The translations under genes and the position numbers were made by a program. Under the pieces are notes generated by a model. It searched no databases and was not told the DNA's origin. It saw only the letters and a program-made list of their open reading frames with translations. Positions 3,946-62,292 of a DNA stretch of 64,000 nt are shown in pieces. Every line of letters starts with the position of its first letter. The stretch's first letter is position 1. This stretch comes from Candidatus Fermentibacter danicus (GTDB taxonomy: Bacteria > Fermentibacterota > Fermentibacteria > Fermentibacterales > Fermentibacteraceae). The stretch is from assembly GCA_001618615.1 (NCBI GenBank), contig LKHB01000181.1, forward strand, positions 2,210 to 66,209, read 5' to 3'.

Positions 3946-6180
3946 TCATGCTCCGTGCTCCGGTGCGTCCCGCTTCAGGAAGAGGGCCGCGAGGGGGGGC
4001 AGGGAGAGCGATACGGAGTGAGCCATCCCGTTGCGCGGCTGCGGGTCGGATGCCGTTCCTCCGAGGTTTCCGGTTCCGCTCCCGCCGTAGGAGGATGCGT
4101 CGGAATTGAGCAGCTCCCTGTAGAAACCGCCCTCCGGCACGCCTATCCTGTACCCGTGTCTGGGTTCGGGGGTGAAGTTGAAGACGCAGATCACGCATCC
4201 GCCCCCGGAGTCCCTCCTGGCGAAGGAAACCACGGTGCTGTCCGTATCGCTGAAATCGATCCACCTGAAGCCCGCCGGATCGTGATCCAGTTCGTGCATG
4301 GCGGGTTCGCGTGACAGGAGGGAGTTCAGATCCCGGACGAGGGACCTGATCCCCCGGTGCGGGGCGTATTCGAGCAGGTGCCAGTCCAGTTGCGAATCGT
4401 GGTTCCACTCCGACCTCTGACCGAATTCGCCGCCCATGAAGAGCAGCTTCTTCCCGGGATGAGCCCACTGATAGCACAGGAGGAGTCTGAGATTGGCGAA
4501 CCTCCTCCAGTCGTCGCCGGGCATCTTCTCCAGGAGGCTCGACTTGCCGTGCACGACCTCGTCGTGGGAGAGCGGCAGTATGAAGTTCTCGCTGTAGGCG
4601 TAGAGCTGCGAGAAGGTGAGATTGTTCACGTGGTACTTCCTGTGGACGGGATCCAGCGCGAAAAAGCCGAGCGTGTCGTGCATCCAGCCCATGTTCCACT
4701 TGAAAGAGAAGCCGAGTCCTCCTCCATCCGGGGGTCTGGTCACGGAGGGCCAGGCGGTGCTCTCCTCCGCGATCGTGAAGGCGCCCGGAAACAGGCTGTG
4801 AACCCGGTCGTTCAGCATCCGGATGAAGGCGACGGCATCGAGGTTCTCCCTGCCGCCGTAGCGGTTGGGGATCCATGCGTCCCTCCCGCGCGAATAGTCG
4901 AGGTAGAGCATCGAGGCCACCGCGTCCACGCGCAGCGCATCGATGTGGAACCTGTCGAACCAGGAGATGGCCGCGGAGATCAGGAAGCCGCGGACCTCGT
5001 TCCTTCCATAGTTGAAGATGAGCGTTCCCCAGTCCGGATGCCTTCCGAGCCTCGGATCATCGTGCTCGTACAGGGCGGTGCCGTCGAACCTGGCCAGGCC
5101 GTGGGCGTCGGAGGGGAAGTGGGCCGGGGTCCAGTCGAGGATGATCCCGATTCCCGCCGCATGCGCCCTGTCCACGAAGCGGGCGAAATCCTCCGGAGAG
5201 CCCAGCCTGCTCGTTGGAGCGAAGTATCCCAGAGTCTGGTACCCCCAGGACCCGTCGAAGGGATGCTCCATCACCGGGAGCAGTTCGATGTGGGTGAAGC
5301 CCATATCCGATACGTACGGCAGGAGCGCGTCCGCGAGTTCCATCCAGCCGAGGAACGGCCGGCCGTCGTCCGGTCTGCGCCAGGAGCCGGCATGGACCTC
5401 GTAGATCGAGACCGGGGAACTGAAGCGCCCGGCGGCGGCTCTGCGGGTCATCCATTCCCCGTCGGTCCACTCGAATCCCGATGCGGATGAGACTACGGAA
5501 GCCGTGGCGGGGCGAATCTCGAACCGGGAGGCCACCGGGTCGGCCTTCTCACGGACGACCCCGTCGCATCCGAGGATCGCGAACTTGTAGAGATCGCCCT
5601 CCCGGAGCCGCGGCACGAACAGCTCCCATACGCCCGACGCCCCTCTGGGGCGCATCGGGTGCCTCCTGCGGTCCCAGGCGTTGAAGTCGCCTGTCACGCT
5701 CACCTGTCCTGCGTTGGGAGCCCAGACGGAGAAGAGCACCCCTTCCACCTCCCCGGCCTTCCAGGGCCTGCCTCCGAAGACCTGGTGCATGCGTTCGTGC
5801 CTGCCTTCGTTGAACAGGTGAAGATCGAGTTCACCGAGCTGCGGCAGGAAGCAGTAGGGGTCCTCCGTGGCCCATGTTGACCCGTCCTCCTTCTCGAAGA
5901 CGAGAAGGTAGGCGAACGGCTGTTCGGGGCCGGGGGAGGACCACACGAAGAGACCGTCGCCGTGTACCCGGGTCATCGGGCTCCCGGCGGGGGATGTGTC
6001 CGGGGAGGTGTCGGTGCGGGCGATCCATGCCCTCGTGGCCGCAGGGCAGAAGGTCCGGATCTCCAGCCTGCCGGAGGGCCCTCCGAGCGGGTGCATGCCG
6101 AGCAGGGCGAATGGATCGGCGGGCGTCGCCTGGACTATCGACCGGATCTCGGAAGCCGTCAGGACGGTCTCGGGTTGCAT
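3946..6180 (-). CDS. glgB: 1,4-alpha-glucan branching enzyme (GH13)
   Basis: Track ORF 3946..6273. Likely start at MQPETVLTASEIRSIV (~6180). Contains the N-terminal CBM48-like region, the GH13 catalytic core (HIDALRVDAVASMLY, GFSFKWNMGWMHD) and a C-terminal domain, at about 745 aa. Confidence 0.9.
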   Translation of the reverse strand: MQPETVLTASEIRSIVQATPADPFALLGMHPLGGPSGRLEIRTFCPAATRAWIARTDTSPDTSPAGSPMTRVHGDGLFVWSSPGPEQPFAYLLVFEKEDGSTWATEDPYCFLPQLGELDLHLFNEGRHERMHQVFGGRPWKAGEVEGVLFSVWAPNAGQVSVTGDFNAWDRRRHPMRPRGASGVWELFVPRLREGDLYKFAILGCDGVVREKADPVASRFEIRPATASVVSSASGFEWTDGEWMTRRAAAGRFSSPVSIYEVHAGSWRRPDDGRPFLGWMELADALLPYVSDMGFTHIELLPVMEHPFDGSWGYQTLGYFAPTSRLGSPEDFARFVDRAHAAGIGIILDWTPAHFPSDAHGLARFDGTALYEHDDPRLGRHPDWGTLIFNYGRNEVRGFLISAAISWFDRFHIDALRVDAVASMLYLDYSRGRDAWIPNRYGGRENLDAVAFIRMLNDRVHSLFPGAFTIAEESTAWPSVTRPPDGGGLGFSFKWNMGWMHDTLGFFALDPVHRKYHVNNLTFSQLYAYSENFILPLSHDEVVHGKSSLLEKMPGDDWRRFANLRLLLCYQWAHPGKKLLFMGGEFGQRSEWNHDSQLDWHLLEYAPHRGIRSLVRDLNSLLSREPAMHELDHDPAGFRWIDFSDTDSTVVSFARRDSGGGCVICVFNFTPEPRHGYRIGVPEGGFYRELLNSDASSYGGSGTGNLGGTASDPQPRNGMAHSVSLSLPPLAALFLKRDAPEHGA

Positions 6181-9638: not shown

Positions 9639-10241
9639 ATGACGCTGAGCGAAGAACTACTCAGGAAGTCGATACATCTGGCTTCCGTGGTCATCCCCCT
9701 TACCGCCCTCCTCGTGGAGAAGACGCTGCTCGTAGTCGTCCTGGCCGTCGCCGCCCTGGCCCTCCTGCTCGTAGATTATCTCAGGCTCAGGAATCAAGGC
9801 TTCAAGGCCTTCTTCCTGTCCGCCTTCGGCGAGCTTCTCCGGAAGCACGAGAAGCAGGGCGGGATCACGGGCTCTACCATCCTGGTCGCCTCGGCCGCTC
9901 TGACGATACTCATCTACAGGCAGGAGACCGCAGTGGCGGCGCTTGTCTTCCTGAGCCTGGGCGACAGCATGGCCGCGCTGGTGGGCAGGAGATACGGGAG
10001 GGTGAAGCTCGTCTGCGGGAGGACTCTCGAAGGCAGCCTGGCGGCGCTGATAAGCTGCCTTTTCGCGAGCGCGGTCCTGCTGCTCATAAGCCCTGTCTTC
10101 CACTGGAACCTCACCCCGCCCGTGCTCATCGCCGGTTCCGTCACCGCCGTCCTGGTCGAACTGATCGACATCCCGCTCGACGACAACTTCAGGATTCCCA
10201 TCATATCGGGGCTCGTCATGGAACTCCTGATCCCCGGCTGA
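9639..10241 (+). CDS. Short-form CdsA-like membrane protein (phosphatidate cytidylyltransferase / polyprenol kinase family)
   Basis: 200 aa with 5-6 TM segments. GDSMAALVGRRYGRVKLVCGRTLEGSLAAL resembles the CTP_transf_1 signature (GDxxASxxGxxxGK...SPxKTxEG). Confidence 0.5.
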   Translation: MTLSEELLRKSIHLASVVIPLTALLVEKTLLVVVLAVAALALLLVDYLRLRNQGFKAFFLSAFGELLRKHEKQGGITGSTILVASAALTILIYRQETAVAALVFLSLGDSMAALVGRRYGRVKLVCGRTLEGSLAALISCLFASAVLLLISPVFHWNLTPPVLIAGSVTAVLVELIDIPLDDNFRIPIISGLVMELLIPG

Positions 10242-10289
10242 GCTGTGGTGGAAAGCGGCGGCCGTCCCACCCGCAGAGGCGCCTACTGG

Positions 10290-11615
10290 ATGGAAGTCTA
10301 TGGGTGCCAGATGAATGTGAGCGACTCGGAGATCATCCGGGGAATCCTGGAGAGCGCCGGATACAGGCAGGTGGACGATCCGGGTGACGCAGACGCAGTC
10401 CTGGTCGTGACCTGCGCCGTTCGTGAACACGCGGAGACGAGAGCCATAGGCAGGCTGACCCAGCTCGGAGCGGGAACCGGCGGAGAGGGGCGTCCCGTCA
10501 CGGTAGTCTGCGGATGCGTGGCCCAGGAGCACGGGAGTTCCCTGCTGGAGAACTATCCGGCCATCGACATCGTGGTCGGACCCGACAGATACCTCGAACT
10601 TCCCGATCTTATCCGGCGCGGCAGGGCCTCCGCGACCGGGTTCTCGCCCCACCACTACGAAGGGGTCGAGCCCGTCAGGAAAACCTTCCCGCGCTCCTTC
10701 GTGACCGTCATGCGAGGCTGCGACAACTTCTGCAGCTACTGCATCGTGCCTCACGTGCGGGGACGGGAGAGGAGCAGGCCCGCCGCCGACATCCTGCGCG
10801 AGGTGTCCGGGCTCGTCTCCTCGGGTTACGGGGAGATCACGCTGCTGGGCCAGAACGTGAACTCCTACCGCTCCGGGGAGCTGCGTTTTCCGGAACTCCT
10901 CGGGATGGTTTCGCGGGAGGCCCGCGGAGCCTGGGTCAGATTCGTCACCAGTCATCCCCGCGATCTCACCGATGACCTCGTGGAGACGATGTCGCGGTGC
11001 CGCAACGTCTGCCGCCAGATCCACCTGCCCGTACAGTCCGGCAGCGACCGCATCCTCTCCGCGATGAACAGGGGCTATTCGAGGGCCGGGTATCTCGACA
11101 AGATCAGGAAACTCAGGGAGGCGATGCCCGGCATCGCCCTCTCGACCGACATGATCGCGGGATTCCCCGGAGAGAGCGAGGAGGACTTCGAACTCAGCGC
11201 TTCGCTTCTCGAAGAGGTCCGGTTCGACCAGGCCTTCCTCTTCAGGTATTCGGAGAGGGCCGGCACTCCCGCCGCCTCGATGGAAGGCTCCATACCCGTC
11301 GAAGTGAGGCTCGAAAGGCTTTCGAGGCTCCAGGAGATCCAGAGATCGATAACGCGCGCCTGCTCGGCCGCGCTCTCGGGTAGAGAGATGCCGGTACTCA
11401 TCATCGGACCCGGCGCAAAGCGCGGCCTTCTGCAGACCCAGGGCCGGACGGCGGGGAACAGAGTGGTGGTGTTCGAGGGCAGGCAGGCCGAGGCGGGGAG
11501 GTTCGTACTGGCGCGCATCGGCTCGAGCGACGGCTGGACGCACTTCGCGGATCTGGTACGCCCGCTCGGGACGGAGGAGGGTTTCGAGGCGTCGGAGTCA
11601 TGGCGCGAGTGTTGA
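10290..11615 (+). CDS. miaB: tRNA-2-methylthio-N6-dimethylallyladenosine synthase
   Basis: Track ORF 10245..11615. Likely start at MEVYGCQMN. Has the MTTase N-domain, a radical SAM CxxxCxxC (CDNFCSYC) and a TRAM domain, with full-length similarity to the MiaB family. Confidence 0.9.
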   Translation: MEVYGCQMNVSDSEIIRGILESAGYRQVDDPGDADAVLVVTCAVREHAETRAIGRLTQLGAGTGGEGRPVTVVCGCVAQEHGSSLLENYPAIDIVVGPDRYLELPDLIRRGRASATGFSPHHYEGVEPVRKTFPRSFVTVMRGCDNFCSYCIVPHVRGRERSRPAADILREVSGLVSSGYGEITLLGQNVNSYRSGELRFPELLGMVSREARGAWVRFVTSHPRDLTDDLVETMSRCRNVCRQIHLPVQSGSDRILSAMNRGYSRAGYLDKIRKLREAMPGIALSTDMIAGFPGESEEDFELSASLLEEVRFDQAFLFRYSERAGTPAASMEGSIPVEVRLERLSRLQEIQRSITRACSAALSGREMPVLIIGPGAKRGLLQTQGRTAGNRVVVFEGRQAEAGRFVLARIGSSDGWTHFADLVRPLGTEEGFEASESWREC

Positions 11616-14785: not shown

Positions 14786-15141
14786 CTCCAGGTCGGGCGG
14801 GTTTCATGCAGCAGCGTCAAAATTGTGGGGTCGACCCCGCCCGGTCAACCTCATCTACACCCGGAGAGCGCTCGTTGTTCCTTTCAGCACGATGTCCGTC
14901 ATGGTGGAACGGAGATCATCGCCCCATCGGAAGGCGTGTTGCTCCCGGGGCGGGGAGTCATCCGCGGTCGAACTCCCACAAAAGAGCCGAGTAAAAGAAA
15001 GCGCGAATCATAGTGTCTTTATTAAAGAAATAAATAAAGTTAGCGACATCGCTTTTCGCCGGGTTTCTCCGGGACTGCCGCCAGGGCTTCCCGGGGTTAT
15101 CTTCCCCGGACATCCGACTGAACGAGAACTGGGGGTCCGTA

Positions 15142-16713
15142 ATGAGGGTCCGCGATCTGATAGAGCAGAAACACCGGGGACATGCAGTCGCAGCCGTCGA
15201 TACGAGGGGGCTCGTGGTCGCCCTCGAGGACGAAGCCAGGCCGGGATCGACCTACAAGGCCGTCCCTCCATGGGTGACGGAGGGCCGCGAGGTCTACAGG
15301 AGGAGTCTCATCCTTGCCCTGGACGAGGCATGCAGACGGACCTTCCCCGACTCGAAGCTATGGGTGGAGCACGCGCTCTCGCTGGGGTACAAGTGTCGTC
15401 TGGAGGAGCGGCCGGCGATGGCCGGCGCGGCGATGTGCGACCTCCTCACGGAGGCTCTCCGTGCCGTCATCTCGGAGGACATCACCTTCGAATCCTTCGA
15501 GGCTGGTAATGGAGAGGGGCCGCCGGAGCTGCTCGACTGGTGGGACGGCTCGACCAGGTTCAGGATGAATCGCCTCTGCAGGAGCACCGCCTTCGGCGCC
15601 GGCCCGGTGCTGCCCTCCACCGGGATGCTCGAACTCTTCGAGCTGCGCCCGCTGAATGCCGGCTTCGTCCTGAGGTTCCCGGGGTCCCTGGAATGGCCCG
15701 CCATCGCTCCCTGGGAGGACAGGCCCAGGCTCGCGAGAGAGTTCGACCTCGAGGAGAAGCACGGGGCGAGGATGCGCGTGAGGACCATTCACGAGCTGAA
15801 CTCCAGGATCGAGGAGGACGGCGGTCTCGAGATCGTCGCAATGAGCCACTTCTACCAGGAGTACAGGCTGACCGAGATCGTGATGGCGCTGGAGGGCATG
15901 TTCCCCCGGAAGCGCGTAGTGACCATCGCAGGGCCATCCTCCAGCGGAAAGACGACCTTCACGAAACTTCTAGGCATGTCCCTGCGCGCGCAGGGGTTCG
16001 GTGTCGAGAGCATAAGTGTCGACAACTACTTCCGGAACAGGGAGGAGACCCCCAGGGACTCCAACGGCGAAATGGACTTCGAATGCCTCGAAGCGCTGGA
16101 CACGGAACTCTTCGGCAGGCATCTGAGCGAGCTTCTGGCAGGGAAGGAGATAAGACTGCCTGTCTTCGACTTCAAGACAGGCCACAGGCTCGATGACCAG
16201 ATACCCATGCGCCTGACGCCCAACGATTTCCTGCTGATAGAAGGAATCCACGGTCTGAACGACAGCCTGACCCCGGGCGTGGATCCTTCCTGCAAGTACA
16301 GGATCTATGCCTCCGCCCTGACCCAGATGAACATCGAGAGGCTGACGCGCATGTCCACATCCGACTCCAGGCTCCTGAGGAGGATGACCAGGGACCACAG
16401 GACCAGGGGCTATTCCGCAGAGGAGACCATCGGAAAGTGGCCCAGCGTAAGGCGGGGGGAGAGGCGCCACATATTCCCGTTCCAGGAGATGGCCGACGCC
16501 ATGTTCAACTCGTCGCTTCCATACGAGCTGCCTGTGCTGAAACCCTTCGCCGAGCCGATTCTACGCTCCGTCCCCGAAGGAAGCCCCGCCTTCGACACGG
16601 CGCACAGGCTGCTCTCCGTCCTCTCTCTCGTGAAGCCGATAGACGCGTCTGTCGTCCCGAGGCTGAGCCTTCTCAGGGAGTTCATCGGAGGCCATCTCCT
16701 CGGTCAGGGGTGA
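15142..16713 (+). CDS. Uridine/nucleoside kinase (PRK/Udk) family protein with a ~270 aa N-terminal extension
   Basis: 523 aa. Walker A GPSSSGKTTFTKLLG. The downstream VDNYFRNREETPRD...LLIEGIHGLND layout is typical of uridine kinase-like P-loop kinases. The N-terminal domain is unassigned. Confidence 0.7.
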   Translation: MRVRDLIEQKHRGHAVAAVDTRGLVVALEDEARPGSTYKAVPPWVTEGREVYRRSLILALDEACRRTFPDSKLWVEHALSLGYKCRLEERPAMAGAAMCDLLTEALRAVISEDITFESFEAGNGEGPPELLDWWDGSTRFRMNRLCRSTAFGAGPVLPSTGMLELFELRPLNAGFVLRFPGSLEWPAIAPWEDRPRLAREFDLEEKHGARMRVRTIHELNSRIEEDGGLEIVAMSHFYQEYRLTEIVMALEGMFPRKRVVTIAGPSSSGKTTFTKLLGMSLRAQGFGVESISVDNYFRNREETPRDSNGEMDFECLEALDTELFGRHLSELLAGKEIRLPVFDFKTGHRLDDQIPMRLTPNDFLLIEGIHGLNDSLTPGVDPSCKYRIYASALTQMNIERLTRMSTSDSRLLRRMTRDHRTRGYSAEETIGKWPSVRRGERRHIFPFQEMADAMFNSSLPYELPVLKPFAEPILRSVPEGSPAFDTAHRLLSVLSLVKPIDASVVPRLSLLREFIGGHLLGQG

Positions 16714-43445: not shown

Positions 43446-43531
43446 CGCCGGGGTGGTGGAACGGCAGACACAACGGACTTAAAATCCGTCGGCCCGAGGC
43501 CGTGAGGGTTCGAATCCCTCTCCCGGCACCA
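43446..43531 (+). tRNA. tRNA-Leu, anticodon TAA, type II (long variable arm), CCA encoded
   Basis: Seen: acceptor stem GCCGGGG pairing with TCCCGGC (one G-U pair), D-arm GTGGAACGGCAGAC, anticodon stem ACGGA/TCCGT with loop CTTAAAA (anticodon UAA), variable-arm hairpin CGGCCCGAGGCCG, T-arm GAGGGTTCGAATCCCTC, and 3' ACCA. Confidence 0.8.
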
Positions 43532-43545
43532 TCCATGGAGGAGTC

Positions 43546-45270
43546 TTGCAGGCGATCCGGGTTCTCAGCGACGAGGTGGTCAACCTCATCTCCGCCGGCG
43601 AGGTGGTCGAGCGGCCGTCATCCATCGTGAAGGAGCTGGTCGAGAACTCGATCGATGCAGGAGCCTCGTCCGTGGAGGTGGAGATCGAGAGGGGGGGCCG
43701 GCAGTCGATAACCGTAAGGGACGACGGTTCCGGGATGTCGCGGCACGACCTGCTCCTCTCGGTGCAGAGGCATGCGACCAGCAAGATCGCCAGGGCTTCG
43801 GACCTGGAGAGCATGACCACGCTCGGATTCCGGGGCGAGGCCCTGCCCAGCATCGCAGCCGTGACCCACATGTCCATCGTCACATCCGACGGAGCCGGGG
43901 CCTGGAGGCTTACGATAGACGGAGGCGTACTCGGAGGGGTCGAACCGGCCGCGAGGACCAGGGGCACGACCATCGTGGCGTCGGGCGTATTCTTCAACCA
44001 GCCCGCGAGGAGGAAGTTCCTCAGGTCGGAGAAGACCGAGGAGTCGTGGATCATCCGTCATCTCGAGGCGCTGGCCTTCTCGAGGCTGGATGTGTCCATC
44101 TCTCTCACGAGCGACGGACGGAGAGTCTTCTCCATACCCGCCGGCACGCTCGAATCCCGCGTCATAACCAGATTCCAGCTTCCCCGTGGAACCGGAGCCG
44201 TCACCGGGCTGGCCTCGGACGGCGCGAGGAGCGCTCGGATACTCCTCTTCCCCGAGAGGCGCACCTCCTCCAGACAGAACTGGTACACCGTGCTCAACGG
44301 CAGGCCTGTTTCGATCAGGGCCGTGGGATATGTCCTCGAGAGCATGCTGGGCGGGCCTTCCGGGTTTCCCCTTTGCGTCTGCAGCCTCGAACTATCCCCG
44401 GGAGACTACGACGTGAACGTACACCCCGCGAAGCTGGAGGCCAGGATGCGCGTGCCTTCGATGATCCAGGCCCTCGTCGCATCGGCGGTCGAGGATGCGA
44501 CGGGCCGCAGGACGGAGGAGGTGCGCGGGAGCCTGACGGCTGCCGGTGGTAACCTGAATGCCGGTGGCGGGGGTGGCTGGAGCCTGACGGCCGTCGGGAG
44601 CGCAGGCGGATCGGCCCTCGGGAAGGAATCCGGCTATCCGGTTTCGTCGAGTCTCTTCGAGACTGCATTCGAGCTTCAGTCCCCCGGTGGTGTGCTTCGA
44701 AAGGAAGCGTCCCCGCCTCCTTCAGCCGCCATCTATCAGGTGGGCAGGAGCTACCTGGTCTCGGCCATGGCAGGGGGGATCGTGATAGTAGACCCTCACG
44801 CCGCGCACGAGAGAATCCTCTTCGAGAGCATCAGGAAGGGCCCCTCCGGCCGTCCGGGGCAGCAGCGCCTGCTCCTGCCGGAGCGGCTCGACCTCGATCC
44901 GGCCTCTCTCGAACAGCTCGGGCTCTATTCCGACATGATAGCCGAGGCCGGCTTCGACATACAGGAATCGGGGGGGCGCCTCATGCTCTGCGCGGTTCCC
45001 GAGGGGGTCAGGCACGGGGTGGAGGCGGTACACGAGATTCTGGCCTCCCTGTCGGACCCCTCCAGGGCCTCTCTCCCTCCACAGGACCAGATCGCGGCCG
45101 CTGCAGCCTGCGCCGGAGCGGTCAAGCTCGGCGACAGCCTCGATCCAGTCCAGGCCGCCGAACTCCTGGACATGCTGTTCGCAACGAAGGATCCCTTCCA
45201 TTGCCCGCACGGAAGGCCAACACTCATCGAGATTTCTTACGACGAGCTGGCCAGGAGGTTCGGCAGATGA
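43546..45270 (+). CDS. mutL: DNA mismatch repair protein MutL
   Basis: 574 aa with a TTG start. GHKL ATPase N-terminus (LISAGEVVERPSSIVKELVENSIDAGAS...VRDDGSGM). The C-terminal dimerisation domain contains DQHAAHERI-like and CPHGRP motifs (endonuclease-type MutL). Confidence 0.9.
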   Translation: MQAIRVLSDEVVNLISAGEVVERPSSIVKELVENSIDAGASSVEVEIERGGRQSITVRDDGSGMSRHDLLLSVQRHATSKIARASDLESMTTLGFRGEALPSIAAVTHMSIVTSDGAGAWRLTIDGGVLGGVEPAARTRGTTIVASGVFFNQPARRKFLRSEKTEESWIIRHLEALAFSRLDVSISLTSDGRRVFSIPAGTLESRVITRFQLPRGTGAVTGLASDGARSARILLFPERRTSSRQNWYTVLNGRPVSIRAVGYVLESMLGGPSGFPLCVCSLELSPGDYDVNVHPAKLEARMRVPSMIQALVASAVEDATGRRTEEVRGSLTAAGGNLNAGGGGGWSLTAVGSAGGSALGKESGYPVSSSLFETAFELQSPGGVLRKEASPPPSAAIYQVGRSYLVSAMAGGIVIVDPHAAHERILFESIRKGPSGRPGQQRLLLPERLDLDPASLEQLGLYSDMIAEAGFDIQESGGRLMLCAVPEGVRHGVEAVHEILASLSDPSRASLPPQDQIAAAAACAGAVKLGDSLDPVQAAELLDMLFATKDPFHCPHGRPTLIEISYDELARRFGR

Positions 45271-46223
45271 TCCGCCTTCCTCCCGTGCCGGTGATAACAG
45301 GTTGCACTGCAACCGGGAAGACCGCTCTCGCACTGGCTCTCGCCCGGGACTACCCGATAGAGGTGATCAGCGCCGACTCCCGTCAGGTCTACAGATACAT
45401 GGACATAGGCACGGCCAAGCCCGGCAGGGCGGAAACGGCGGCGCTGCCCCACCATCTGATCGACATCGCAGACCCGGACGGCTGCTTTTCCGCCGGCTCG
45501 TTCGCGCGGGAGGCCGCCCGGCTCATCCTCGAGATCTCCGCAAGGGGAGCCGTGCCTGTGATCGTCGGTGGAACCGGCCTCTACATCCGGGCACTGACCG
45601 GACCTTTCGACGACCTGCCTCCCGCACATCCCGCCCTCCGCACGGTTCTCTCCGCCTGCGAAGCATCCTCTGCGGGCTTTCTGCGCAGGTTTCTGGCGAG
45701 GCTGGACCCGGTTTCCTCTAAAACCATCGGGGCCGGTGACGCGGTCAGAACGCTCAGGGCCCTGGAGATAACCATTCTGTCGGGACGCCGTGCATCCGTC
45801 CTCAGAACCGGTGCTGGACGAAGAAGCGGGTTCACCTTCCGCATCGCGAGGATAGAGATTCCCGGAGCCGCGCTCCGGGCGAGGATATCCCTGCGGGTGA
45901 ACAGGATGATGGAGGACGGACTGGAGGCGGAAGTCGGACGCCTGCTCGCGATGGGCTACGGGCGGGGCTGCGCGCCGGGAAGGACGATAGGATACAGGGA
46001 GGTGCTCGATTCCATCGACGCCGGCCGGTCTTCCGAGGAGACCACGACAGCGATCGTGAACGGGACATGGCGCTTTTCGAGGAGGCAGAGGAACATGCTC
46101 GGCAGGCTTCCCGCGGATCTCGTTTCCGACGGAGGAGATCCGGCATCTCTCGGTCCCGCCCTTTTCGAGGGATGGGATCGATCATTCGCGGATGGAGGGA
46201 CTGGCAGTGCAGAAGGCAGTTGA
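45267..46223 (+). CDS. miaA: tRNA dimethylallyltransferase
   Basis: Internal start MIRLPPVPVITGCTATGKTALALALA (P-loop) of track ORF 45201..46223. DSRQVYRYMDIGTAKP is MiaA-typical. Overlaps the mutL stop by 4 nt. Confidence 0.85.
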   Translation: MIRLPPVPVITGCTATGKTALALALARDYPIEVISADSRQVYRYMDIGTAKPGRAETAALPHHLIDIADPDGCFSAGSFAREAARLILEISARGAVPVIVGGTGLYIRALTGPFDDLPPAHPALRTVLSACEASSAGFLRRFLARLDPVSSKTIGAGDAVRTLRALEITILSGRRASVLRTGAGRRSGFTFRIARIEIPGAALRARISLRVNRMMEDGLEAEVGRLLAMGYGRGCAPGRTIGYREVLDSIDAGRSSEETTTAIVNGTWRFSRRQRNMLGRLPADLVSDGGDPASLGPALFEGWDRSFADGGTGSAEGS

Positions 46224-47499
46224 ACCGCTTTCCGAGCATATCCCGCTCGAAGAGGTGAAGATCGAGGAGATCGACTCCCTCGATCCGCCCGAAGGCTGGA
46301 GCCCGGAGTCTCCCGGGGTCGAACCCGTGCCTCCTCCGATTCTCATCGAGGAGGAGGGCAGATTCTCGCTTCTGATCAACCACGACTCCTTCTGGCGGGC
46401 CAGAGCGGCCGGCATGCTCTCGATCAGGGCCATGGTCGTGAGGAATCCCATACACGTCCCGATCGCTCACAAGTCGGTGAAGAACAGCCTGGAGGAGGCG
46501 CTCCTCTTCGACGGCCTGCTCCGGATGTCCATCGTCCCCAACAGGAGCAGGCTTGCGGAGCTGCTGAACTTCTCCAGAGCCCGGATCACACAGGTGCTCA
46601 ACGTCCTGAAGCTGCCCCTCCAGATCAGGCGCGAACTGCTGATCACCGAGAACATCAGCGAGTTCCACCTCCGCCCCCTCATCAAGATGGACGACGAGAA
46701 GCGTCAACTGGCCTCGTTCCGCAAGCTGATCGCCGACGGGCTGACCGGGAGGCAGATGGCCCTGTTCGCGGCCTCCGGAGAGGAACCGGTCGAGGAGGCA
46801 CAGACGGACCTCGAAAGAATTATGTCGGAGCCTGTGCTGGTTACGCCCGAGCCTCCCTCCGGGGAAGCCCCGCGGAAACCGGTTTCAGCTATGGAAACTC
46901 CCCCTGAAGATGAGGAGGTCGCCGCCCCGGCGTCCGCGCCGGAGGCTGATCCGGCCGCCGGAGAACACGCCGCGAAGAAGACCCAGGGGCAGCAGGAGAA
47001 GACCAGGCAGCCCAGATCCGCTCAGAGGGCGGACTCCGGGAAGGAGGACACGCCGCCCTCCACGGCCGAGAGAGCCCTGTTCATGAGGGCGAAGGGTCTG
47101 CTCGATATCCTGGGCACGCTGCGGGACAAGGGCTGGGAGGAGAAGGCCGCCAGGAACGGAGCGACACGCGAGGAACTCGTCTTCCTGGAGGGAGTATCCC
47201 TTCTTCGCAGGGGGCTTTACGAGCGAGCTGCCGAAACCCTCATCAACGCCTCGCACCTGTCCCGCGACAATGCCGCCGTCTTCTTCTTCCTCGGAAGGAG
47301 CTACAACCTCATGGAAAAGCTGTCGAACGCCGAGGAGTATCTCCGGATGGCCTGCGAGCACGTGCCGGACGATCCCGACATCCTTTCCGAACTGGCCATC
47401 GTCCTGGAGAAGCAGAAACGGTACACGGAAGCGTCGAGCTTCTACAGGAGGGCTTCCGCCCTCCGGAACCCCTCCCAGCCCAGGAGCCGGCGCCAGTGA
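46192..47499 (+). CDS. ParB-like HTH protein with a degenerate ParB/Srx N-domain and a C-terminal TPR region
   Basis: 435 aa. NRSRLAELLNFSRARITQVLNVLKLPLQIRREL matches the ParB HTH and LKLP box. The upstream LINHDSFWRARAAGMLSIRAMVV aligns to the ParB GERRxRAA arginine-patch region but is diverged. A low-complexity Pro/Glu/Ala linker follows, then TPR-like repeats (FFFLGRSYNLMEKLSNAEEYLRMACEHVPDDPDILSELAIVLEKQKRYTEASSFYRRA). Confidence 0.55.
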   Translation: MEGLAVQKAVEPLSEHIPLEEVKIEEIDSLDPPEGWSPESPGVEPVPPPILIEEEGRFSLLINHDSFWRARAAGMLSIRAMVVRNPIHVPIAHKSVKNSLEEALLFDGLLRMSIVPNRSRLAELLNFSRARITQVLNVLKLPLQIRRELLITENISEFHLRPLIKMDDEKRQLASFRKLIADGLTGRQMALFAASGEEPVEEAQTDLERIMSEPVLVTPEPPSGEAPRKPVSAMETPPEDEEVAAPASAPEADPAAGEHAAKKTQGQQEKTRQPRSAQRADSGKEDTPPSTAERALFMRAKGLLDILGTLRDKGWEEKAARNGATREELVFLEGVSLLRRGLYERAAETLINASHLSRDNAAVFFFLGRSYNLMEKLSNAEEYLRMACEHVPDDPDILSELAIVLEKQKRYTEASSFYRRASALRNPSQPRSRRQ

Positions 47500-49088
47500 G
47501 ATCGAGGGACGCCTCGCTCTTCGTCATGTCTCTGATCCTCGCCGCCGGATGCGCCCGCATAGTGGCTCCGTCGGGAGGCCCGGAGGACAAATCCCCGCCT
47601 TCGGTGGTCTCGGTTTCTCCGCCTCCCTCGGCCGGGGTGCCGGAACTGGACAGAATCACGATATCATGGGACGAGAGGCTTCAGCAGAGCACCATCGAGG
47701 CGCAGCTCTTCCCGCGTATCCCGGCCAGGATCGGCAGTTCGCAGAGATCGATTACGATCTCGCTCGAAGAGCCTCTCGGAGCCCGCACACTGCTCGTCCA
47801 CATCCCGTCATCCCTCTCCGACCAGCATGGCAACGAACTGGGCGCGACGCTCGACTTCGCCTACAGCGGTCTGGACACGCTGCCTTCGGGGGTCATCAGG
47901 ATATCGACGGCCAGGCAGGGCGGAACCGTGTTCGGCGCGGAGGTGCGGGTCGAAGTCACCGACGAGTCGAATGAACTCGTGCGCAGGACGACTCCGGACT
48001 CGACAGGCATCGCTTTCGCGGGCTGGCTTCCCGGAGGCGGCTACTCCGTCCTCTGCTACGAGGATCTGGACAGGAGCATGACGTGGGAGCGCGACATGGA
48101 AGCAGGTGCCGAGACCACCCTGGTCCTTCCGGCGGCCGACACGCTCACCCTCGATATGGTTCTGACCGTCGTGGACACCGTCGGCCCCAGGCTCGTATCG
48201 GTGACTTCCCTGGACGCATTCCATCTTCAGGTGGATTTCAACGAACAGCCCGCCATCCCGGCGGCCCCCGGAGCGTCGTTCTCGCTGAGCGACCCCTCGG
48301 GAGCCCGGATCGGGATACTCGGATGCTGGGGGTCCGGCGCCCGTGACGCCAGATCGCTGATACTGGCCACCGGGGCTCTTCCGGCCGGACTCTGCATACT
48401 CCGGACGGACGGAACCATAGAGGATCTTCTCGGCAACGCCTCCGATCCGGACTCGATCGAATTCACCGCCGTCGATTCCGTCGCGACCGACTCTCTCAGA
48501 CTGCAATCCATGTACCCGCCGCCGGGCGCGACGGAGGTGTCCGCCTCGACGATCATCGCCTTCTCCTTCTCGGACTGGGTCGATTACGATTCGCTTCTGA
48601 CCAGATTCAGCCTGTCCAGGGTGCTGGACGGCTCGAAAGTCGAGGGCACGCTCACCGCCAGGGATTCGAGATCGTTCGAGTTCGCACCCCTGCACGACCT
48701 GATGGGCGAGGAGCAGTACAGAGTCGAAATCCTGTCCGGCCTCGAATCCCCTTCCGGTGACACTCTCCAGACGACGGGCTGGGCCTTCGTAGCCGCCTGG
48801 GGCGACGAACCCGGCTCGATCGAGGGAGTCGTCAGAGGGGGCGGGGCGAACATCGTGATAGGTGTAACGGCCGCCGGCTCCAGCGGCGATTCCTTTTCTT
48901 TCGGAATCCGGAGCGGTCCGTTCGTTCTCGAGGGCATCCCTGCAGGCAGGTACACCGTATCGGCCTGGACGGACAGGAACGGCAACGGCGTCTGGGATCC
49001 CGGAGAGCCCTACGGAAACTGTCCCGGGGTCGTGCTGGTGAACCCGGGCATAGCCACGACGGGGGTGGCGATTGAGATTCTCCCCTGA
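47496..49088 (+). CDS. Lipoprotein with bacterial Ig-like (SbsA/Big-type) domains
   Basis: 530 aa with a lipobox (LILAAGCAR). PSVVSVSPPPSAG is the typical start of SbsA-type Ig-like domains. A beta-rich repeat organisation follows. Confidence 0.5.
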   Translation: MRSRDASLFVMSLILAAGCARIVAPSGGPEDKSPPSVVSVSPPPSAGVPELDRITISWDERLQQSTIEAQLFPRIPARIGSSQRSITISLEEPLGARTLLVHIPSSLSDQHGNELGATLDFAYSGLDTLPSGVIRISTARQGGTVFGAEVRVEVTDESNELVRRTTPDSTGIAFAGWLPGGGYSVLCYEDLDRSMTWERDMEAGAETTLVLPAADTLTLDMVLTVVDTVGPRLVSVTSLDAFHLQVDFNEQPAIPAAPGASFSLSDPSGARIGILGCWGSGARDARSLILATGALPAGLCILRTDGTIEDLLGNASDPDSIEFTAVDSVATDSLRLQSMYPPPGATEVSASTIIAFSFSDWVDYDSLLTRFSLSRVLDGSKVEGTLTARDSRSFEFAPLHDLMGEEQYRVEILSGLESPSGDTLQTTGWAFVAAWGDEPGSIEGVVRGGGANIVIGVTAAGSSGDSFSFGIRSGPFVLEGIPAGRYTVSAWTDRNGNGVWDPGEPYGNCPGVVLVNPGIATTGVAIEILP

Positions 49089-49884
49089 GGAAGCCATCGA
49101 CAGAGGCCTCTGCACGAGCTGCGGGAGGTGCTCCGCCGTCTGTCCCTCGGGCGCGGCGTCCGGCGGCGCCGGAGTTCCTCCGGCCTTCGATCTCCGCAGG
49201 TGCATCTCCTGTGGACACTGCTCCGCCTTCTGCCCCGTGGACGCCTTCCATTCCGGAAGCCTGCCGGGATCTTCCGCCGCATGCGGCATCGATCCGCTGC
49301 TTGAGCTCTATTCCGGCAGGAGATCGGTGAGGGTGTTCGCGCCGGTGGAGGTGACGGAGGCCGAAAGGGCGAAGATGCTGTCCGTGATCGGCTACTGCCC
49401 CACGGGCGTCAACAGGTGCGGGATCGTCGTGCGCGCGTTCGGAGGGGCGGAGGCCGGGTCACTCCACGAGAGCGTCAGAAGGGCGCTGCGGCCGTTCTGG
49501 AAGATCGGCCCGCTCCGGCTGATCGGAGCCGTCTCCGGGTATGGGGCGGTTCTGCGGCGCTTCATGAAAGGGGAGGACCTGATATTCAGGCAGGCTCCGC
49601 TGGTGCTTTTCTTCTTCACCCCGCGGAGGAACCCCACTTCGGCGGAAGACGGCGTGATAGCCGCGTCCATGGTCATGACGGCCGCGTGCTCCATGGGGTT
49701 CGGCTCCTTCTGGAACGGGGTGGCCAGGATCCTCTACCACATCACGCCTTCGTGGAGAAGGCTGGCCGGGGCGCCCCGTGGGTCCAGACTCTGCGCCGTG
49801 CTGTGCCTGGGCAGACCCGCCTTCGAGTCCAGACCGCTGCCGCCGAGAGAGTGGACGCTTCTGGACGGAAGCGGAAGGCCGTAA
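49072..49884 (+). CDS. Nitroreductase-family protein with an N-terminal 2x[4Fe-4S] ferredoxin domain
   Basis: 270 aa. Two Cys clusters, CTSCGRCSAVCP and CISCGHCSAFCP. The downstream RRSVRVFAPVEVTEAERAKML is the nitroreductase FMN-binding fold start (RRSxR). Confidence 0.65.
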   Translation: MRFSPEEAIDRGLCTSCGRCSAVCPSGAASGGAGVPPAFDLRRCISCGHCSAFCPVDAFHSGSLPGSSAACGIDPLLELYSGRRSVRVFAPVEVTEAERAKMLSVIGYCPTGVNRCGIVVRAFGGAEAGSLHESVRRALRPFWKIGPLRLIGAVSGYGAVLRRFMKGEDLIFRQAPLVLFFFTPRRNPTSAEDGVIAASMVMTAACSMGFGSFWNGVARILYHITPSWRRLAGAPRGSRLCAVLCLGRPAFESRPLPPREWTLLDGSGRP

Positions 49885-57356: not shown

Positions 57357-57369
57357 TGCGGAGGTTCAC

Positions 57370-58638
57370 ATGACCAGATCCGCGGCCGCGCCCGGCAGAA
57401 TCCCGGGCTCCAGGTTCGCCCCGCTCATAGGCGCCCTTGCCGCGCTGGTCGTGACGGCCGTCGTCATCGTCGCGATAAGGGCCGGTGGAGGCGGGGGGCC
57501 GGCGGACGGCGACGAGAACGCCGAGATGGGGGCGGTCACAGTCGAGGCCATCCCCGACTCCGTCAGGGACGAGATCCCGAATACATGGTCCCAGCCCAGG
57601 AACGACCCGTCCGGAACCGGAGTCTGGGGGCCGGATGTCGGTTCGCCCATGGACACCCTGTGGAGAATCCATACCGGCATGGAGTTCTTCGCAGCCCCCG
57701 CCCTCTGCGGCGGGACCCTCTATTTCGGAGGGAACGACGGCGTCTTCATGGCCGTCTCGGCCGCCGACGGCTCGCGGCTATGGGCGTTCGGAACGTCCTG
57801 CGGCCTGAACGGAGAGGCTGCAGTAAGCGACAGTGCAGTGTTCTTCTGCGGCCAGGACGGATATGTCTACTCGCTGGACCGCGCATCGGGCTCGCTCCGC
57901 TGGAAGGCGGGACTGGGATACCACATCTTCGCATCGGTGGGGCTCCTCTGCGATACCATCCTCGTCACCGGCAACTCCGAGGGCTCGATTGCGGCGCTGT
58001 CGGCTGCGAGCGGCGATCTGCTCTGGTCCGCATCGCCGGGCGGCGTGATACTCGGTCCTGCTCTTGCAGACACGATTGCTGTATTCACCTCGGAGGACGG
58101 GATCGCGTGCGCCTACGGCGCCGGCGGGAACGAGCTCTGGAGGAGGGATTTCTCCGCGCAGGCCTCCGCTCCTTCGATAGGAGGCTCTTCAGTCTATATC
58201 GGCTTCTCGGACGGAGTCGTGAGAAGGATCGACCTCGCTTCGGGAACGGTCGTGTGGGAAACCGACCTGGTGCACCAACCCGTCCGCACCGTCATTTCCA
58301 GACCCGTCCTCTCAGGGGGCAGAGTCTTCGCAGGCACGTGCGACAGCCGGGTGGTCTGCCTGTCCGAAGAGGACGGCTCCCTGCAGTGGGACACTCCCCT
58401 GGAGAACTGGGTCCAGCTTCCTCCCGCGGTCGGGGCGGCCTCGCTCTATGTCTGCTCCGACGACCAGCGTTTTCATGTGCTCGACGTCGAGACGGGCGAG
58501 ATCCGGTTCAGCATCGAGATGGGCGGCTATTCGGGAACGGCGCCCATACTCGCCAACGGTACGGTCTATTTCGGAACCGCTTCGGGCGACTTCTTCGCCT
58601 TCCGCGGAACCCTGGCCGACGACGGGGAAGAGCCCTGA
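57370..58638 (+). CDS. PQQ-like beta-propeller repeat protein (BamB-like)
   Basis: 422 aa with a signal anchor. Repeated tGxxxWxx motifs: GSRLWAF, SLRWKAG, LLWSAS, NELWRRD, VVWETD, SLQWDT. Confidence 0.7.
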   Translation: MTRSAAAPGRIPGSRFAPLIGALAALVVTAVVIVAIRAGGGGGPADGDENAEMGAVTVEAIPDSVRDEIPNTWSQPRNDPSGTGVWGPDVGSPMDTLWRIHTGMEFFAAPALCGGTLYFGGNDGVFMAVSAADGSRLWAFGTSCGLNGEAAVSDSAVFFCGQDGYVYSLDRASGSLRWKAGLGYHIFASVGLLCDTILVTGNSEGSIAALSAASGDLLWSASPGGVILGPALADTIAVFTSEDGIACAYGAGGNELWRRDFSAQASAPSIGGSSVYIGFSDGVVRRIDLASGTVVWETDLVHQPVRTVISRPVLSGGRVFAGTCDSRVVCLSEEDGSLQWDTPLENWVQLPPAVGAASLYVCSDDQRFHVLDVETGEIRFSIEMGGYSGTAPILANGTVYFGTASGDFFAFRGTLADDGEEP

Positions 58639-59519
58639 TGACCCGGGAGGAGGGGAGGATACACGCCGGATACGCCGTTATCGCGGGAGCCGCCAACTCC
58701 GGCAAGTCCTCTCTCTTCAACTATTTGGTAGGCAAGAACATATCCCCGGTCACTCCGGGCCGGGGCACGACGCGGGTGCCGCTCTCCGGGATCTGCCACA
58801 GGGCGGGGGATGACTGCCAGGTATGCCTGATCGACACGCCGCCTCTCGCATCGGCCGTCAACCTGAACCTGCTGGACTGGATGGATGCGGCATGCCTGCT
58901 GGTGGATGCGACCCGTCTCGGCGAGGAGCTTTCCTCCCCCGAGGCATCCGAGCTGTTCAGGCGTTTCGAGGGCAGGCCGGTCGTGCTGGGCCTGACCCAT
59001 GTGGACAGATTCGATGCCTCCCTCTGGCGTGCGCTTCTCAACCAGGCCGGTCTCATGCGGGAGTTCCCGTACGCCGTAGCCATGTGTCCGCCGCGGGGGA
59101 CGGGTGCAGCGGAGATGCTCGACGCCCTGGTCCGGCTGCTCCCCATGAGAAGGAGGCTCTTTCCGGACGGCTGCATCACCCTCCATTCCGAGCGCTTCCT
59201 CGTGTCGGAACTCATCAGGACGGAACTGTTCCACGTCCTCCCGGAGGAGATAGCCACCTCCACGGCCGTCCAGATCGAGGAGTACTCCCTCCGGGATTCC
59301 AAGACCTACATCAGGGCCAATCTCCTGGTATCCAGGCATTCCTTCAAGGGCATCGTGATAGGGCGCAGAGGGCAGACACTCCAGAAGATAACGGACTCCG
59401 CCTCCAGGGGAGCCGGCGACCTGCTCGGCAAGGTCGTCCTGCCCGACCTCTGGGTGAAGGTCCGGGAGTCGTGGCCCGACAACCGTCACGACCTGCTCGA
59501 GCTGGGCTATGTCATCTGA
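58638..59519 (+). CDS. era: GTPase Era
   Basis: C-terminal part of track ORF 57585..59519, from MTREEGRIHAGYAVIAGAANSGKSSLFN (G1). DTPP (G3) is present. The C-terminal KH domain ends ...WVKVRESWPDNRHDLLELGY. Overlaps the previous stop (TGATG). Confidence 0.85.
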   Translation: MTREEGRIHAGYAVIAGAANSGKSSLFNYLVGKNISPVTPGRGTTRVPLSGICHRAGDDCQVCLIDTPPLASAVNLNLLDWMDAACLLVDATRLGEELSSPEASELFRRFEGRPVVLGLTHVDRFDASLWRALLNQAGLMREFPYAVAMCPPRGTGAAEMLDALVRLLPMRRRLFPDGCITLHSERFLVSELIRTELFHVLPEEIATSTAVQIEEYSLRDSKTYIRANLLVSRHSFKGIVIGRRGQTLQKITDSASRGAGDLLGKVVLPDLWVKVRESWPDNRHDLLELGYVI

Positions 59520-61556: not shown

Positions 61557-61617
61557 CGGCGGAGCCCTGCGGGGAGATAATTCTCCTCTATGCGTAAAAG
61601 AGGGGACGTGACCTTGT

Positions 61618-62292
61618 CTGCCTGATCTGATCGCCATCGACGGGCCCGCGGGTTCGGGCAAGAGCACGACAGCGCGACTCTGCGCCGGCGTGCTGGGATT
61701 CGACTACCTGGACACGGGCGCGATGTACAGGATGGCTGCTCTCCTCTGCGCTCGGAATGGCTGCGGATCTGACGGCGGGGCTCTCGCCGCGCTGATCGAA
61801 TCTCACTCGATATCGCTGCATAATGGAGAGGCGTTCCTCGATGGCGAGAACGTCTCGGCCTGCATCCGCACGCCGGCGATAAGCGAAGCGGCCAGTCTCC
61901 TGTCGGCGCTGTCCGGGGTCAGGCGGGCCATGGTCCTCAAGCAGCGCGAATTCGCATCCGGGCGCGATCTCGTAGCCGAAGGCCGTGACATGGGCACGGT
62001 CGTGTTTCCCGACGCCTCACTCAAGGTCTACGTGATAGCCGATCTGGCAGTGAGGGCCGTGAGGAGGCTGCGCGACCAGGGTCCGGGCTCCGCGGGGGAG
62101 GAGGACTTCGCCTCAGTGGTTCTCTCCCTCATTAAGAGGGACCGGAGGGACCGGGAACGCTCCGACAGCCCCCTGAGGCCTGCGCCGGACGCCGTCCTCC
62201 TGGACACCAGCCTCATGACGGTAGCCGAACAGGTGGAAAAGGTGGTCTCGCTTTACGAGGCAGTTCGCGGGAGGCGCAGGGATGTTGTCTAG
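61618..62292 (+). CDS. cmk: Cytidylate kinase; start upstream of the track ORF (non-canonical or CTG start likely)
   Basis: Track ORF 61690..62292 begins after the P-loop. The same frame stays open from 61612 and encodes LIAIDGPAGSGKSTTARL (Cmk P-loop) using CTG codons at 61618 and 61627, with no ATG/GTG/TTG. The rest is Cmk-like (DTGAMYR...). Confidence 0.75.
   Translation: MPDLIAIDGPAGSGKSTTARLCAGVLGFDYLDTGAMYRMAALLCARNGCGSDGGALAALIESHSISLHNGEAFLDGENVSACIRTPAISEAASLLSALSGVRRAMVLKQREFASGRDLVAEGRDMGTVVFPDASLKVYVIADLAVRAVRRLRDQGPGSAGEEDFASVVLSLIKRDRRDRERSDSPLRPAPDAVLLDTSLMTVAEQVEKVVSLYEAVRGRRRDVV

Follow-up and report, generated by a model that had tools for sequence, protein, structure and literature searches.

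A predicted ParB-type DNA-binding protein with tetratricopeptide repeats in place of the dimerisation domain in the Fermentibacterota

What is the task of a putative DNA-binding protein of ParB type that sits among housekeeping genes on a chromosome, with no ParA partner beside it? The question is raised by an open reading frame (ORF) of Candidatus Fermentibacter danicus, located in a 64,000-nucleotide stretch of contig LKHB01000181.1 (positions 2,210 to 66,209 of the forward strand, assembly GCA_001618615.1), referred to here in its full length as the window. The ORF encodes a ParB-type helix-turn-helix (HTH) joined to tetratricopeptide repeats (TPRs), hereafter the ParB-TPR protein. The switch driven by cytidine triphosphate (CTP) is now regarded as the core of ParB action, and exceptions to it are, to our knowledge, rare and instructive, ParT foremost among them. 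An earlier note on this DNA, made from the letters and their translated reading frames, described an orphan ParB-like protein with a degenerate arginine patch, and suggested that, instead of serving in partition, it is a repurposed scaffold or regulator that binds DNA. The analysis reported here leads us to favour, tentatively, a site-bound DNA-protein adaptor, probably with a housekeeping role at the nucleoid or in the cell cycle, over a ParA-driven partition protein. The protein is cytoplasmic and derived from chromosomal ParB/Noc-type proteins.

The ORF is uninterrupted, counts 435 residues from its ATG and closes with a stop codon at 47497-47499 (the coordinates of all features are collected in Table 1). 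A GGAGG Shine-Dalgarno sequence is located at 46194-46198, inside the first codons of the annotated frame and 8 nt before GTG 46207. Since, in addition, the identical protein is modelled at NCBI with 430 residues and the N-termini of close homologues read 'MQKA...', matching a start at this codon, the true start is probably GTG 46207 (430 residues) and not ATG 46192. In Pfam, HTH_ParB (PF17762) is matched at residues 98-189 with E=2.1e-9 (37.9 bits, gathering cutoff 22.6), far beyond chance, so the ParB-type HTH that the earlier note had read from NRSRLAELLNFSRARITQVLNVLKLPLQIRREL (residues 117-149) is real rather than the coincidental likeness it had allowed for. Over residues 332-425, the models TPR_16, TPR_1, TPR_2, TPR_14 and TPR_19 exceed their cutoffs, while neither ParB_N (PF02195) nor the ParB C-terminal domain (ParB_C) gives a Pfam match in the protein even at E<=10, congruent with the proposal that TPRs have taken the place of the canonical dimerisation domain.

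Named families at NCBIfam stayed below threshold: Noc (TIGR04285) reached 32.2 bits against a cutoff of 315, parB_part (TIGR00180) 24 bits against 58.45, and MamA (NF040959) 36.9 bits against 200, the likeness to MamA being generic TPR similarity. A phmmer comparison with the sequences of the PDB aligned residues 46-189 to Noc (7ng0, 7nfu) and to H. pylori ParB (4umk); among proteins of solved structure, chromosomal ParB, Spo0J and Noc are nearest. Public records of the identical protein carry the names 'hypothetical protein', 'Nucleoid occlusion protein' and 'ParB-like chromosome segregation protein Spo0J'.

Structure models were generated with AlphaFold2 using the family alignment. For the entire protein, residues 20-200 and 290-430 are confidently modelled and the linker between them is disordered, with a mean predicted local distance difference test (pLDDT) of 81.9; the N-terminal half modelled separately reached a pLDDT of 88.5 and a predicted template modelling score of 0.84. 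In these models the N-domain keeps the ParB/sulfiredoxin fold. Alignment with canonical ParBs gives a different picture for the boxes that bind CTP. The box I helix (C motif) has suffered an 8-residue deletion and a Pro-rich loop stands instead, the PNPxQPR loop has become PPxxW in the ParB-TPR family, and of box III (the ENLQR region) the LQRxxL part is deleted, with only the Asn (N98) retained. The P motif, GERRxRA, has given way to (N/H)H(R/D/K)(S/T)(F/V/L)W, with Ser/Thr and a hydrophobic residue in the place of its two central arginines. The structure prediction that the earlier note had proposed as a check has thus a split outcome, the ParB/sulfiredoxin fold being kept in the model and the boxes of the CTP pocket being gone by alignment.

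The degenerate arginine patch, which the earlier note had placed at HDSFWRARAAG (residues 64-74), is correct, because phmmer sets NHDSFWRA against GERRWRA. Degenerate however undersells it, as GERR is present in 0/122 family members and xHxxxW is conserved in 121/122. Across the N-domain, the family shows no variation at H64, W68, N98, E101 and E102. Considering that the replacement residues are themselves conserved, the alignments argue that the N-domain has been remodelled rather than being in decay. In canonical ParBs, GERRxRA mediates both ParB-CTP and ParB-ParB contacts (PMC7333895), and an unstructured N-terminal peptide is often needed for the interaction with ParA (PMC12260392). The N-terminal peptide of canonical ParBs, LG(R/K)GLxxLI, is present in five of the eight canonical-type ParBs of the alignment (P0137, P0175, P0180, P0207 and P0315) and absent from all ParB-TPR family members in it; residues 1-11 of the ParB-TPR protein (MQKAVEPLSEH...) are acidic and predicted to be disordered.

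The modules that follow differ markedly in conservation. Mean pairwise identity amounts to 66% in the DNA-binding domain (DBD), 53% in the TPRs and 49% in the N-domain, and to 28% and 19% in the helices preceding the TPRs and in the linker, respectively. The basic HTH residues R118, R120, R129, R131 and K140 are invariant in family alignments, and at the position of GHAR in canonical ParB stands SEFHLRPL, with (S/T)E(F/Y)xLR(P/Q)(L/I) found in 121/122 members. The linker (residues 195-289) is indeed disordered and rich in Pro and Glu, as previously described: it consists of 16% Pro, 17% Glu and 15% Ala, carries a net charge of -11, has pLDDT values below 50 over most of its length, and varies from 39 to 106 residues across the family. 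About 28 residues past the DBD it contains a short motif, modelled as a short helix at 207-210, whose strict form (D/E)(L/I)Ex(L/V)(M/F) occurs in 93/122 members versus 1.2% of shuffled linkers, an approximately 60-fold enrichment; among the members without the strict form, most of those inspected have near variants. The motif could dock in the TPR groove of the protein itself or in a partner. The TPR module is predicted to form three helix pairs (326-339/343-356, 361-373/377-390 and 395-407/411-425), and Foldseek finds it to resemble consensus-TPR (TM 0.7-0.96, target-normalised) and MamA structures. Its invariant polar residues, N372, E406 and K407, appear to occupy positions 12-13 in the A helices of the repeats, positions that line the ligand-binding groove of TPRs.

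How widely is this architecture distributed? Public records of Candidatus Fermentibacter daniensis, from the candidate phylum Hyd24-12 (Fermentibacterota), contain the identical protein. A homology search yielded 143 clusters; the 120 listed all carry HTH_ParB and the TPR set of Pfam, nearly all are full length (about 365-437 residues) with identities down to 37%, and the named clusters among those listed are all Fermentibacteria, Aegiribacteria or Sabulitectum. Scanning one genome per GTDB species, we recovered a full-length ParB-TPR gene in about 57 genomes. Where a record states a taxon, it is always Fermentibacterota; the remaining records are titled only 'uncultured bacterium', and in other phyla the HTH segment alone was matched. 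The gene is single copy, and in the same gene block, in every Fermentibacterota member examined. We then searched a profile of the N-terminal half (residues 1-198) exhaustively against 1.84 billion representatives: seven match the entire profile at 277-324 bits, eight reach E<=1e-30, and the best match outside the family attains 78 bits. This score cliff, 277-324 bits against 78 bits, indicates that the ParB-TPR family is a tight, isolated and phylum-specific clade.

The best match outside the family is MBN1232524.1 of Candidatus Coatesbacteria (P0125, 514 residues, 10001-11545 of locus L075), which combines ParB_N (45.9 bits) with HTH_ParB and TPRs. It is collinear with the window protein, with 42% identity over 93 residues in the HTH region, TEFQLRPL included, and 30% over 99 residues in the TPR region. 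Unlike the Fermentibacterota family, however, the Coatesbacteria type has a ParB_N that Pfam detects, with the box I helix and GERR kept and box III (ENLQR) degenerate, an additional C-terminal domain of about 120 residues after the TPRs that has no Pfam match, and another genomic context. There, the gene that comes next shows no relationship to the Big_5 lipoprotein gene behind the window gene, and a pairing with the downstream gene conserved across phyla was therefore rejected. As P0125 and a second cluster, P0280, are the only ones of this type found outside the family, ParB-TPR appears to be a rare architecture, of which the Fermentibacterota clade represents the branch that shed the nucleotide pocket; the Coatesbacteria proteins may be an evolutionary intermediate. 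The distribution of the fusion, which the earlier note had wished to see checked, thus comprises the Fermentibacterota family and the two Coatesbacteria-type clusters. That note had not recognised the architecture from any characterised family, and none has it, yet it is not unique.

No ParA-type Walker A (KGGxGK[ST]T) is present in the 64-kb window or in 76 related loci totalling 1.24 Mb (+/-10 kb, about 57 genomes). The window has four P-loop ORFs only, MiaA and three others, none of them ParA/MinD-like. The label orphan therefore stands for the neighbourhood, that is the window and the 1.24 Mb of related loci, and for no more than this. Regarding parS (TGTTNCACGTGAAACA), a single candidate was found in the window, TGTTCCACTTGAAAGA at 4692-4707, which has two mismatches and is not significant, as 8/100 shuffles equal it; with at most one mismatch there is none in 945 kb of family loci. 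We also scanned 56 family loci from 56 species, about 945 kb, for palindromes common to species, and obtained no candidate DNA site, the recurrent palindromes lying in coding sequence and in few species each. Two of these were rejected as targets individually, since CCTGGCG-N3-CGCCAGG encodes the MiaA motif TWRYARRQ and GGTATCGATACC lies within the Big_5 gene. The Hyd24-12 genome paper makes no mention of partition genes. Because three CTP boxes and the ParA-interacting peptide have been lost, and no ParA Walker A is found in 1.24 Mb, the proposal of a repurposed DNA-binding scaffold or regulator is strengthened, although it stays a reading of the data.

Measured against canonical ParB/Spo0J, the type Ia centromere-binding CTPases, the HTH is present while the other four of the five testable defining features are not, and the family score is sub-threshold. 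The two share the ParB/sulfiredoxin-fold N-domain as far as the models go, the order of N-domain, DBD, flexible linker and C-terminal module, and the single chromosomal copy. On the other hand, the ParB-TPR protein is without GERRxRA, box I helix and ENLQR and has no recognisable CTP pocket, it exhibits three TPRs instead of the C-terminal dimerisation domain, it is devoid of the LG(R/K)GL peptide, and GHAR has changed to (S/T)E(F/Y)xLRP, with no parA adjacent and no parS nearby.

We infer DNA binding, absence of CTP binding, TPR-peptide docking and a physiological role along the following lines. The ParB-type HTH would bind one or more specific DNA sites. With all CTP-binding boxes lost, the N-domain would not support a CTP-gated sliding clamp, and the protein would consequently stay at its loading sites. 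The linker peptide and the three-repeat TPR module would then permit self-association, the TPRs of one copy docking the linker of another, and/or recruitment of a partner, the outcome being a site-bound DNA-protein hub. Because the whole phylum carries the gene, in one copy and inside a housekeeping block, we consider a housekeeping role at the nucleoid or in the cell cycle somewhat likelier than niche gene regulation. Several points weigh against such an adaptor. The palindrome scan delivered coincidences in coding sequence only and no DNA target; the N-domain, conserved at 49% and with invariant H64, W68, N98, E101 and E102, may hold a new pocket or interface; a conserved gene order is of little weight for function in a phylum that is small and rearranges slowly; and every structural statement rests on AlphaFold models.

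A transcription factor is possible though rather unlikely, and the evidence barely separates it from the adaptor: the HTH would bind an operator, and the TPRs would sense a peptide, a protein or a small ligand and switch the targets, possibly including the own gene block. An HTH, a linker and TPRs constitute a general layout of ligand-sensing regulators, as exemplified by the RNPP proteins (PlcR, PrgX, NprR and Rgg), in which an N-terminal HTH is followed by a C-terminal TPR module that binds ligands or peptides. This is a resemblance only. The RNPP regulators differ by an XRE-type HTH, longer TPR domains, no ParB/sulfiredoxin fold, no long acidic linker and their occurrence in Firmicutes, and no homology search made here revealed a sequence relationship to them. 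The failure to find ParA or parS in the window and related loci, and the loss of the CTP motifs, also suit a regulator. However, around the gene block of the 56 species neither a conserved palindrome nor a site resembling an operator was found, and between 42400 and 50200 neither promoters nor terminators rise above shuffle expectation, the promoter scan covering the sigma-70 consensus only. A universal single copy, a nearly invariant HTH and a housekeeping block would moreover be unusual for a niche regulator, while they would fit a global one. That ParB-family proteins can act as transcription regulators is illustrated by KorB and VirB (PMC11790492, PMC10770331). Both are plasmid-encoded, neither has TPRs, KorB acts together with KorA and has a C-terminal domain of its own, and both depend on the CTP switch, the pocket of which is lost in the ParB-TPR protein.

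It is improbable that the protein instead serves as the centromere-binding protein of the lineage, with a diverged parS-like site and an unlinked ParA. Such a function would be CTP-independent, as in ParT of the Streptomyces plasmid SCP2, a ParB-family HTH protein without a working CTPase module that works on DNA without CTP (PMC12260392) and that sets a precedent for CTP-independent partition in ParB-like proteins. Congruent with this idea, the relatives of solved structure that come closest are chromosomal ParB, Spo0J and Noc, the gene occurs once per genome throughout the phylum, which is also the usual situation of chromosomal parB, and the look-ups made here demonstrated no canonical ParB in Fermentibacterota genomes. 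Nevertheless, ParT keeps its C-terminal dimerisation domain, an adjacent cognate ParA and a defined parS, whereas the ParB-TPR protein has no such domain, the LG(R/K)GLxxLI peptide of canonical ParBs is absent from it, and the searches described above retrieved neither a ParA-type Walker A nor a parS-like site. The N-region of ParT, a flexible peptide and two helices, furthermore has no ParB fold, in contrast to the N-domain modelled here, and ParT is plasmid-borne and mainly actinobacterial.

Slightly less probable again is an N-domain that is still gated by a ligand, H64, W68, N98, E101 and E102 forming a remodelled pocket for another nucleotide or a small ligand, an option that is compatible with an adaptor role as well as with a regulator role. 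The domain is clearly constrained, with 49% mean identity, several invariant polar and aromatic residues and the near-universal xHxxxW replacement motif (121/122 members), and in the alignment N98 stands at the Asn position of ENLQR. A 2025 survey of the ParB-CTPase fold reports proteins with this fold whose ligand is ATP or GTP in place of CTP (10.1101/2025.10.10.680097). Conversely, the box I helix and LQRxxL of box III are deleted, the P motif has lost its two central arginines, and PF02195 gives no signal even at the most permissive threshold, E<=10. The same survey chose its proteins by PF02195, and neither its text nor the supplement searched mentions a TPR fusion (10.1101/2025.10.10.680097); as the family gives no PF02195 match, surveys based on this model would miss it.

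A bolder extension, to which we assign a similarly low probability, is that Fermentibacterota have no conventional ParABS at all. The ParB-TPR protein, as the only ParB homologue, would then organise or segregate the chromosome without CTP or ParA, via TPR-linker docking or by hooking onto the envelope or the division machinery, with TPR docking replacing the clamp and the Coatesbacteria proteins as the intermediate. If it were true that this is the sole ParB homologue of the phylum, interest in the protein would rise sharply.

A nucleoid-occlusion factor like Noc, anchoring specific sites of the chromosome at the membrane or the division machinery, is highly improbable. Noc of Firmicutes is a chromosomal ParB paralogue that has been put to a use other than partition, among the named families it scores best in the NCBIfam and PDB sequence searches, and one public record calls the identical protein 'Nucleoid occlusion protein'. 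Noc has an N-terminal membrane-targeting helix and a ParB-type C-terminal domain. Both are missing from the ParB-TPR protein, whose N-terminus is acidic and predicted to be disordered, unlike a membrane-targeting helix (no formal amphipathicity test was made), and the TIGR04285 score of 32 bits compares with the cutoff of 315. Noc is also a CTPase with membrane binding controlled by CTP (PMC8429893), and the CTP boxes are absent here. Finally, an artefact, be it a ParB-like and a TPR gene joined by frameshift or mis-assembly or a pseudogene in decay, is refuted, because the same continuous architecture recurs in more than 120 homologous protein clusters, about 57 species genomes and independent assemblies, down to 35-40% identity (35% at the lowest), with strong purifying selection on the DBD and TPR modules, and the two apparent partial matches, seemingly truncated at the N-terminus (L058 and L059), turned out to be intact ORFs.

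Returning to the site-bound adaptor, its interest lies in a descendant of chromosomal ParB that an entire phylum has retained, with the fold and the DBD kept, the nucleotide boxes, the ParA-contacting peptide and the dimerisation domain discarded, and TPRs and a linker peptide gained. Together with the GERR-bearing relatives from Coatesbacteria, it would offer a natural series on how a ParB scaffold does without CTP, from clamp to fixed adaptor. The phylum is uncultured, which sets a practical limit, and the function proposed is deduced in its entirety.

The neighbourhood is that of an ordinary chromosomal housekeeping locus, with mutL-miaA upstream and a lipoprotein gene downstream, as the earlier note had it. 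In the window, the miaA and ParB-TPR genes overlap by 17-32 nt. Three distant members (40-70% identity) display the arrangement murJ-uvrC-...-mutL-miaA-ParB-TPR-Big_5 lipoprotein-[4Fe-4S]/nitroreductase-...-pgi with overlapping stop and start codons. Counted by tblastn over 57 loci, miaA is directly upstream of the ParB-TPR gene in 51/53, both exceptions being intact on inspection, and mutL is upstream in 42/44; the Big_5 lipoprotein gene is directly downstream in 51/51, followed by the nitroreductase gene in 46/47. Co-transcription of the block is likely, judged from this arrangement. A defence or phage origin was ruled out, as no PADLOC or PHROGs family matches the protein and the genomic context is housekeeping.

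Table 1. Positions in the window of the ParB-TPR gene, its segments and the neighbouring genes.
Feature	Position	Strand	Basis or remark
ParB-TPR ORF, whole	46192..47499	+	Identical sequence in public Candidatus Fermentibacter daniensis records
Shine-Dalgarno and probable start GTG 46207-46209	46194..46209	+	Sequence, NCBI 430-residue models, homologue N-termini
Degenerate ParB/sulfiredoxin-fold N-domain (predicted), residues 17-97	46240..46482	+	Strands 19-23, 50-54, 57-62, 77-83; helix 64-72
NHDSFW, residues 63-68, at the place of the GERRxRA arginine patch	46378..46395	+	H64 and W68 invariant in family
ParB-type DBD, residues 98-194	46483..46773	+	Most conserved module, 66% mean pairwise identity
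HTH core NRSRLAELLNFSRARITQVLNVLKLP, residues 117-142	46540..46617	+	Nearly invariant across phylum, motif in 113/122 members
Disordered acidic Pro/Glu/Ala-rich linker, residues 195-289	46774..47058	+	Variable length and sequence
Linker motif DLERIM, residues 206-211	46807..46824	+	Family consensus (D/E)(L/I)Ex(L/V)(M/F)
Two helices before the TPRs, residues 290-325, weakly conserved cap	47059..47166	+	AlphaFold2 helices 290-307, 315-321
Three TPRs, residues 326-428	47167..47475	+	Pfam TPR models, Foldseek
mutL	43546-45270	+	Upstream gene of invariant block
miaA	about 45267-46223	+	Pfam on orthologous genes; overlaps start of ParB-TPR gene
Big_5 lipoprotein gene	47496-49088	+	Pfam; 4-nt overlap with ParB-TPR stop
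2x[4Fe-4S]-nitroreductase fusion gene	49072-49884	+	Pfam; 270 residues; overlaps lipoprotein gene end

Further observations concern the surroundings of the gene. The Big_5 lipoprotein comprises 530 residues with a lipobox, LAAGC, an Ig-like Big_5 domain and weak matches to DUF2141 and a CarboxypepD_reg-like domain. A tRNA-Leu (anticodon TAA) at 43447-43531, between a rubrerythrin-like ORF and mutL, ends 15 nt before the mutL start and may mark the beginning of the mutL-miaA-ParB-TPR-Big_5-nitroreductase transcription unit. The three P-loop ORFs of the window other than MiaA appear, from their motifs, to encode a kinase-like protein (15034-16710, GPSSSGKTT), an Era/Der-type GTPase (57357-59516, GAANSGKSSLFN) and a Cmk-like cytidylate kinase (61612-62289, IAIDGPAGSGKST).

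Other ParB-like proteins emerged from the searches. Second loci in two metagenome-assembled genomes (MAGs) were rejected as canonical ParB, one (L073) being a match outside any ORF and the other (L074) a standalone HTH of 103 residues. The matches from Hydrogenedentota and others that cover the HTH only are, where inspected, small standalone ParB-type HTH proteins and not ParB-TPR. Such proteins, of 103-206 residues (L074 9866-10177, L062 9815-10300 and L066 9665-10285), carry an LSRARITQ(I/L)LNLLKLP-like helix; several copies occur in Hydrogenedentota MAGs, and the one from an Aegiribacteria MAG (L074) adjoins an ORF resembling an insertion-sequence-like transposase or integrase. Nine long ParB-like proteins of 438-673 residues (P0173, P0181, P0184, P0187, P0196, P0202, P0222, P0233 and P0260) were likewise excluded from the ParB-TPR type, as there is no TPR in their unannotated tails. 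They exhibit an ordinary N-terminal ParB_N and HTH_ParB and C-terminal extensions of about 240-470 residues without a Pfam match, and look like another uncharacterised group, unrelated to the TPR family.

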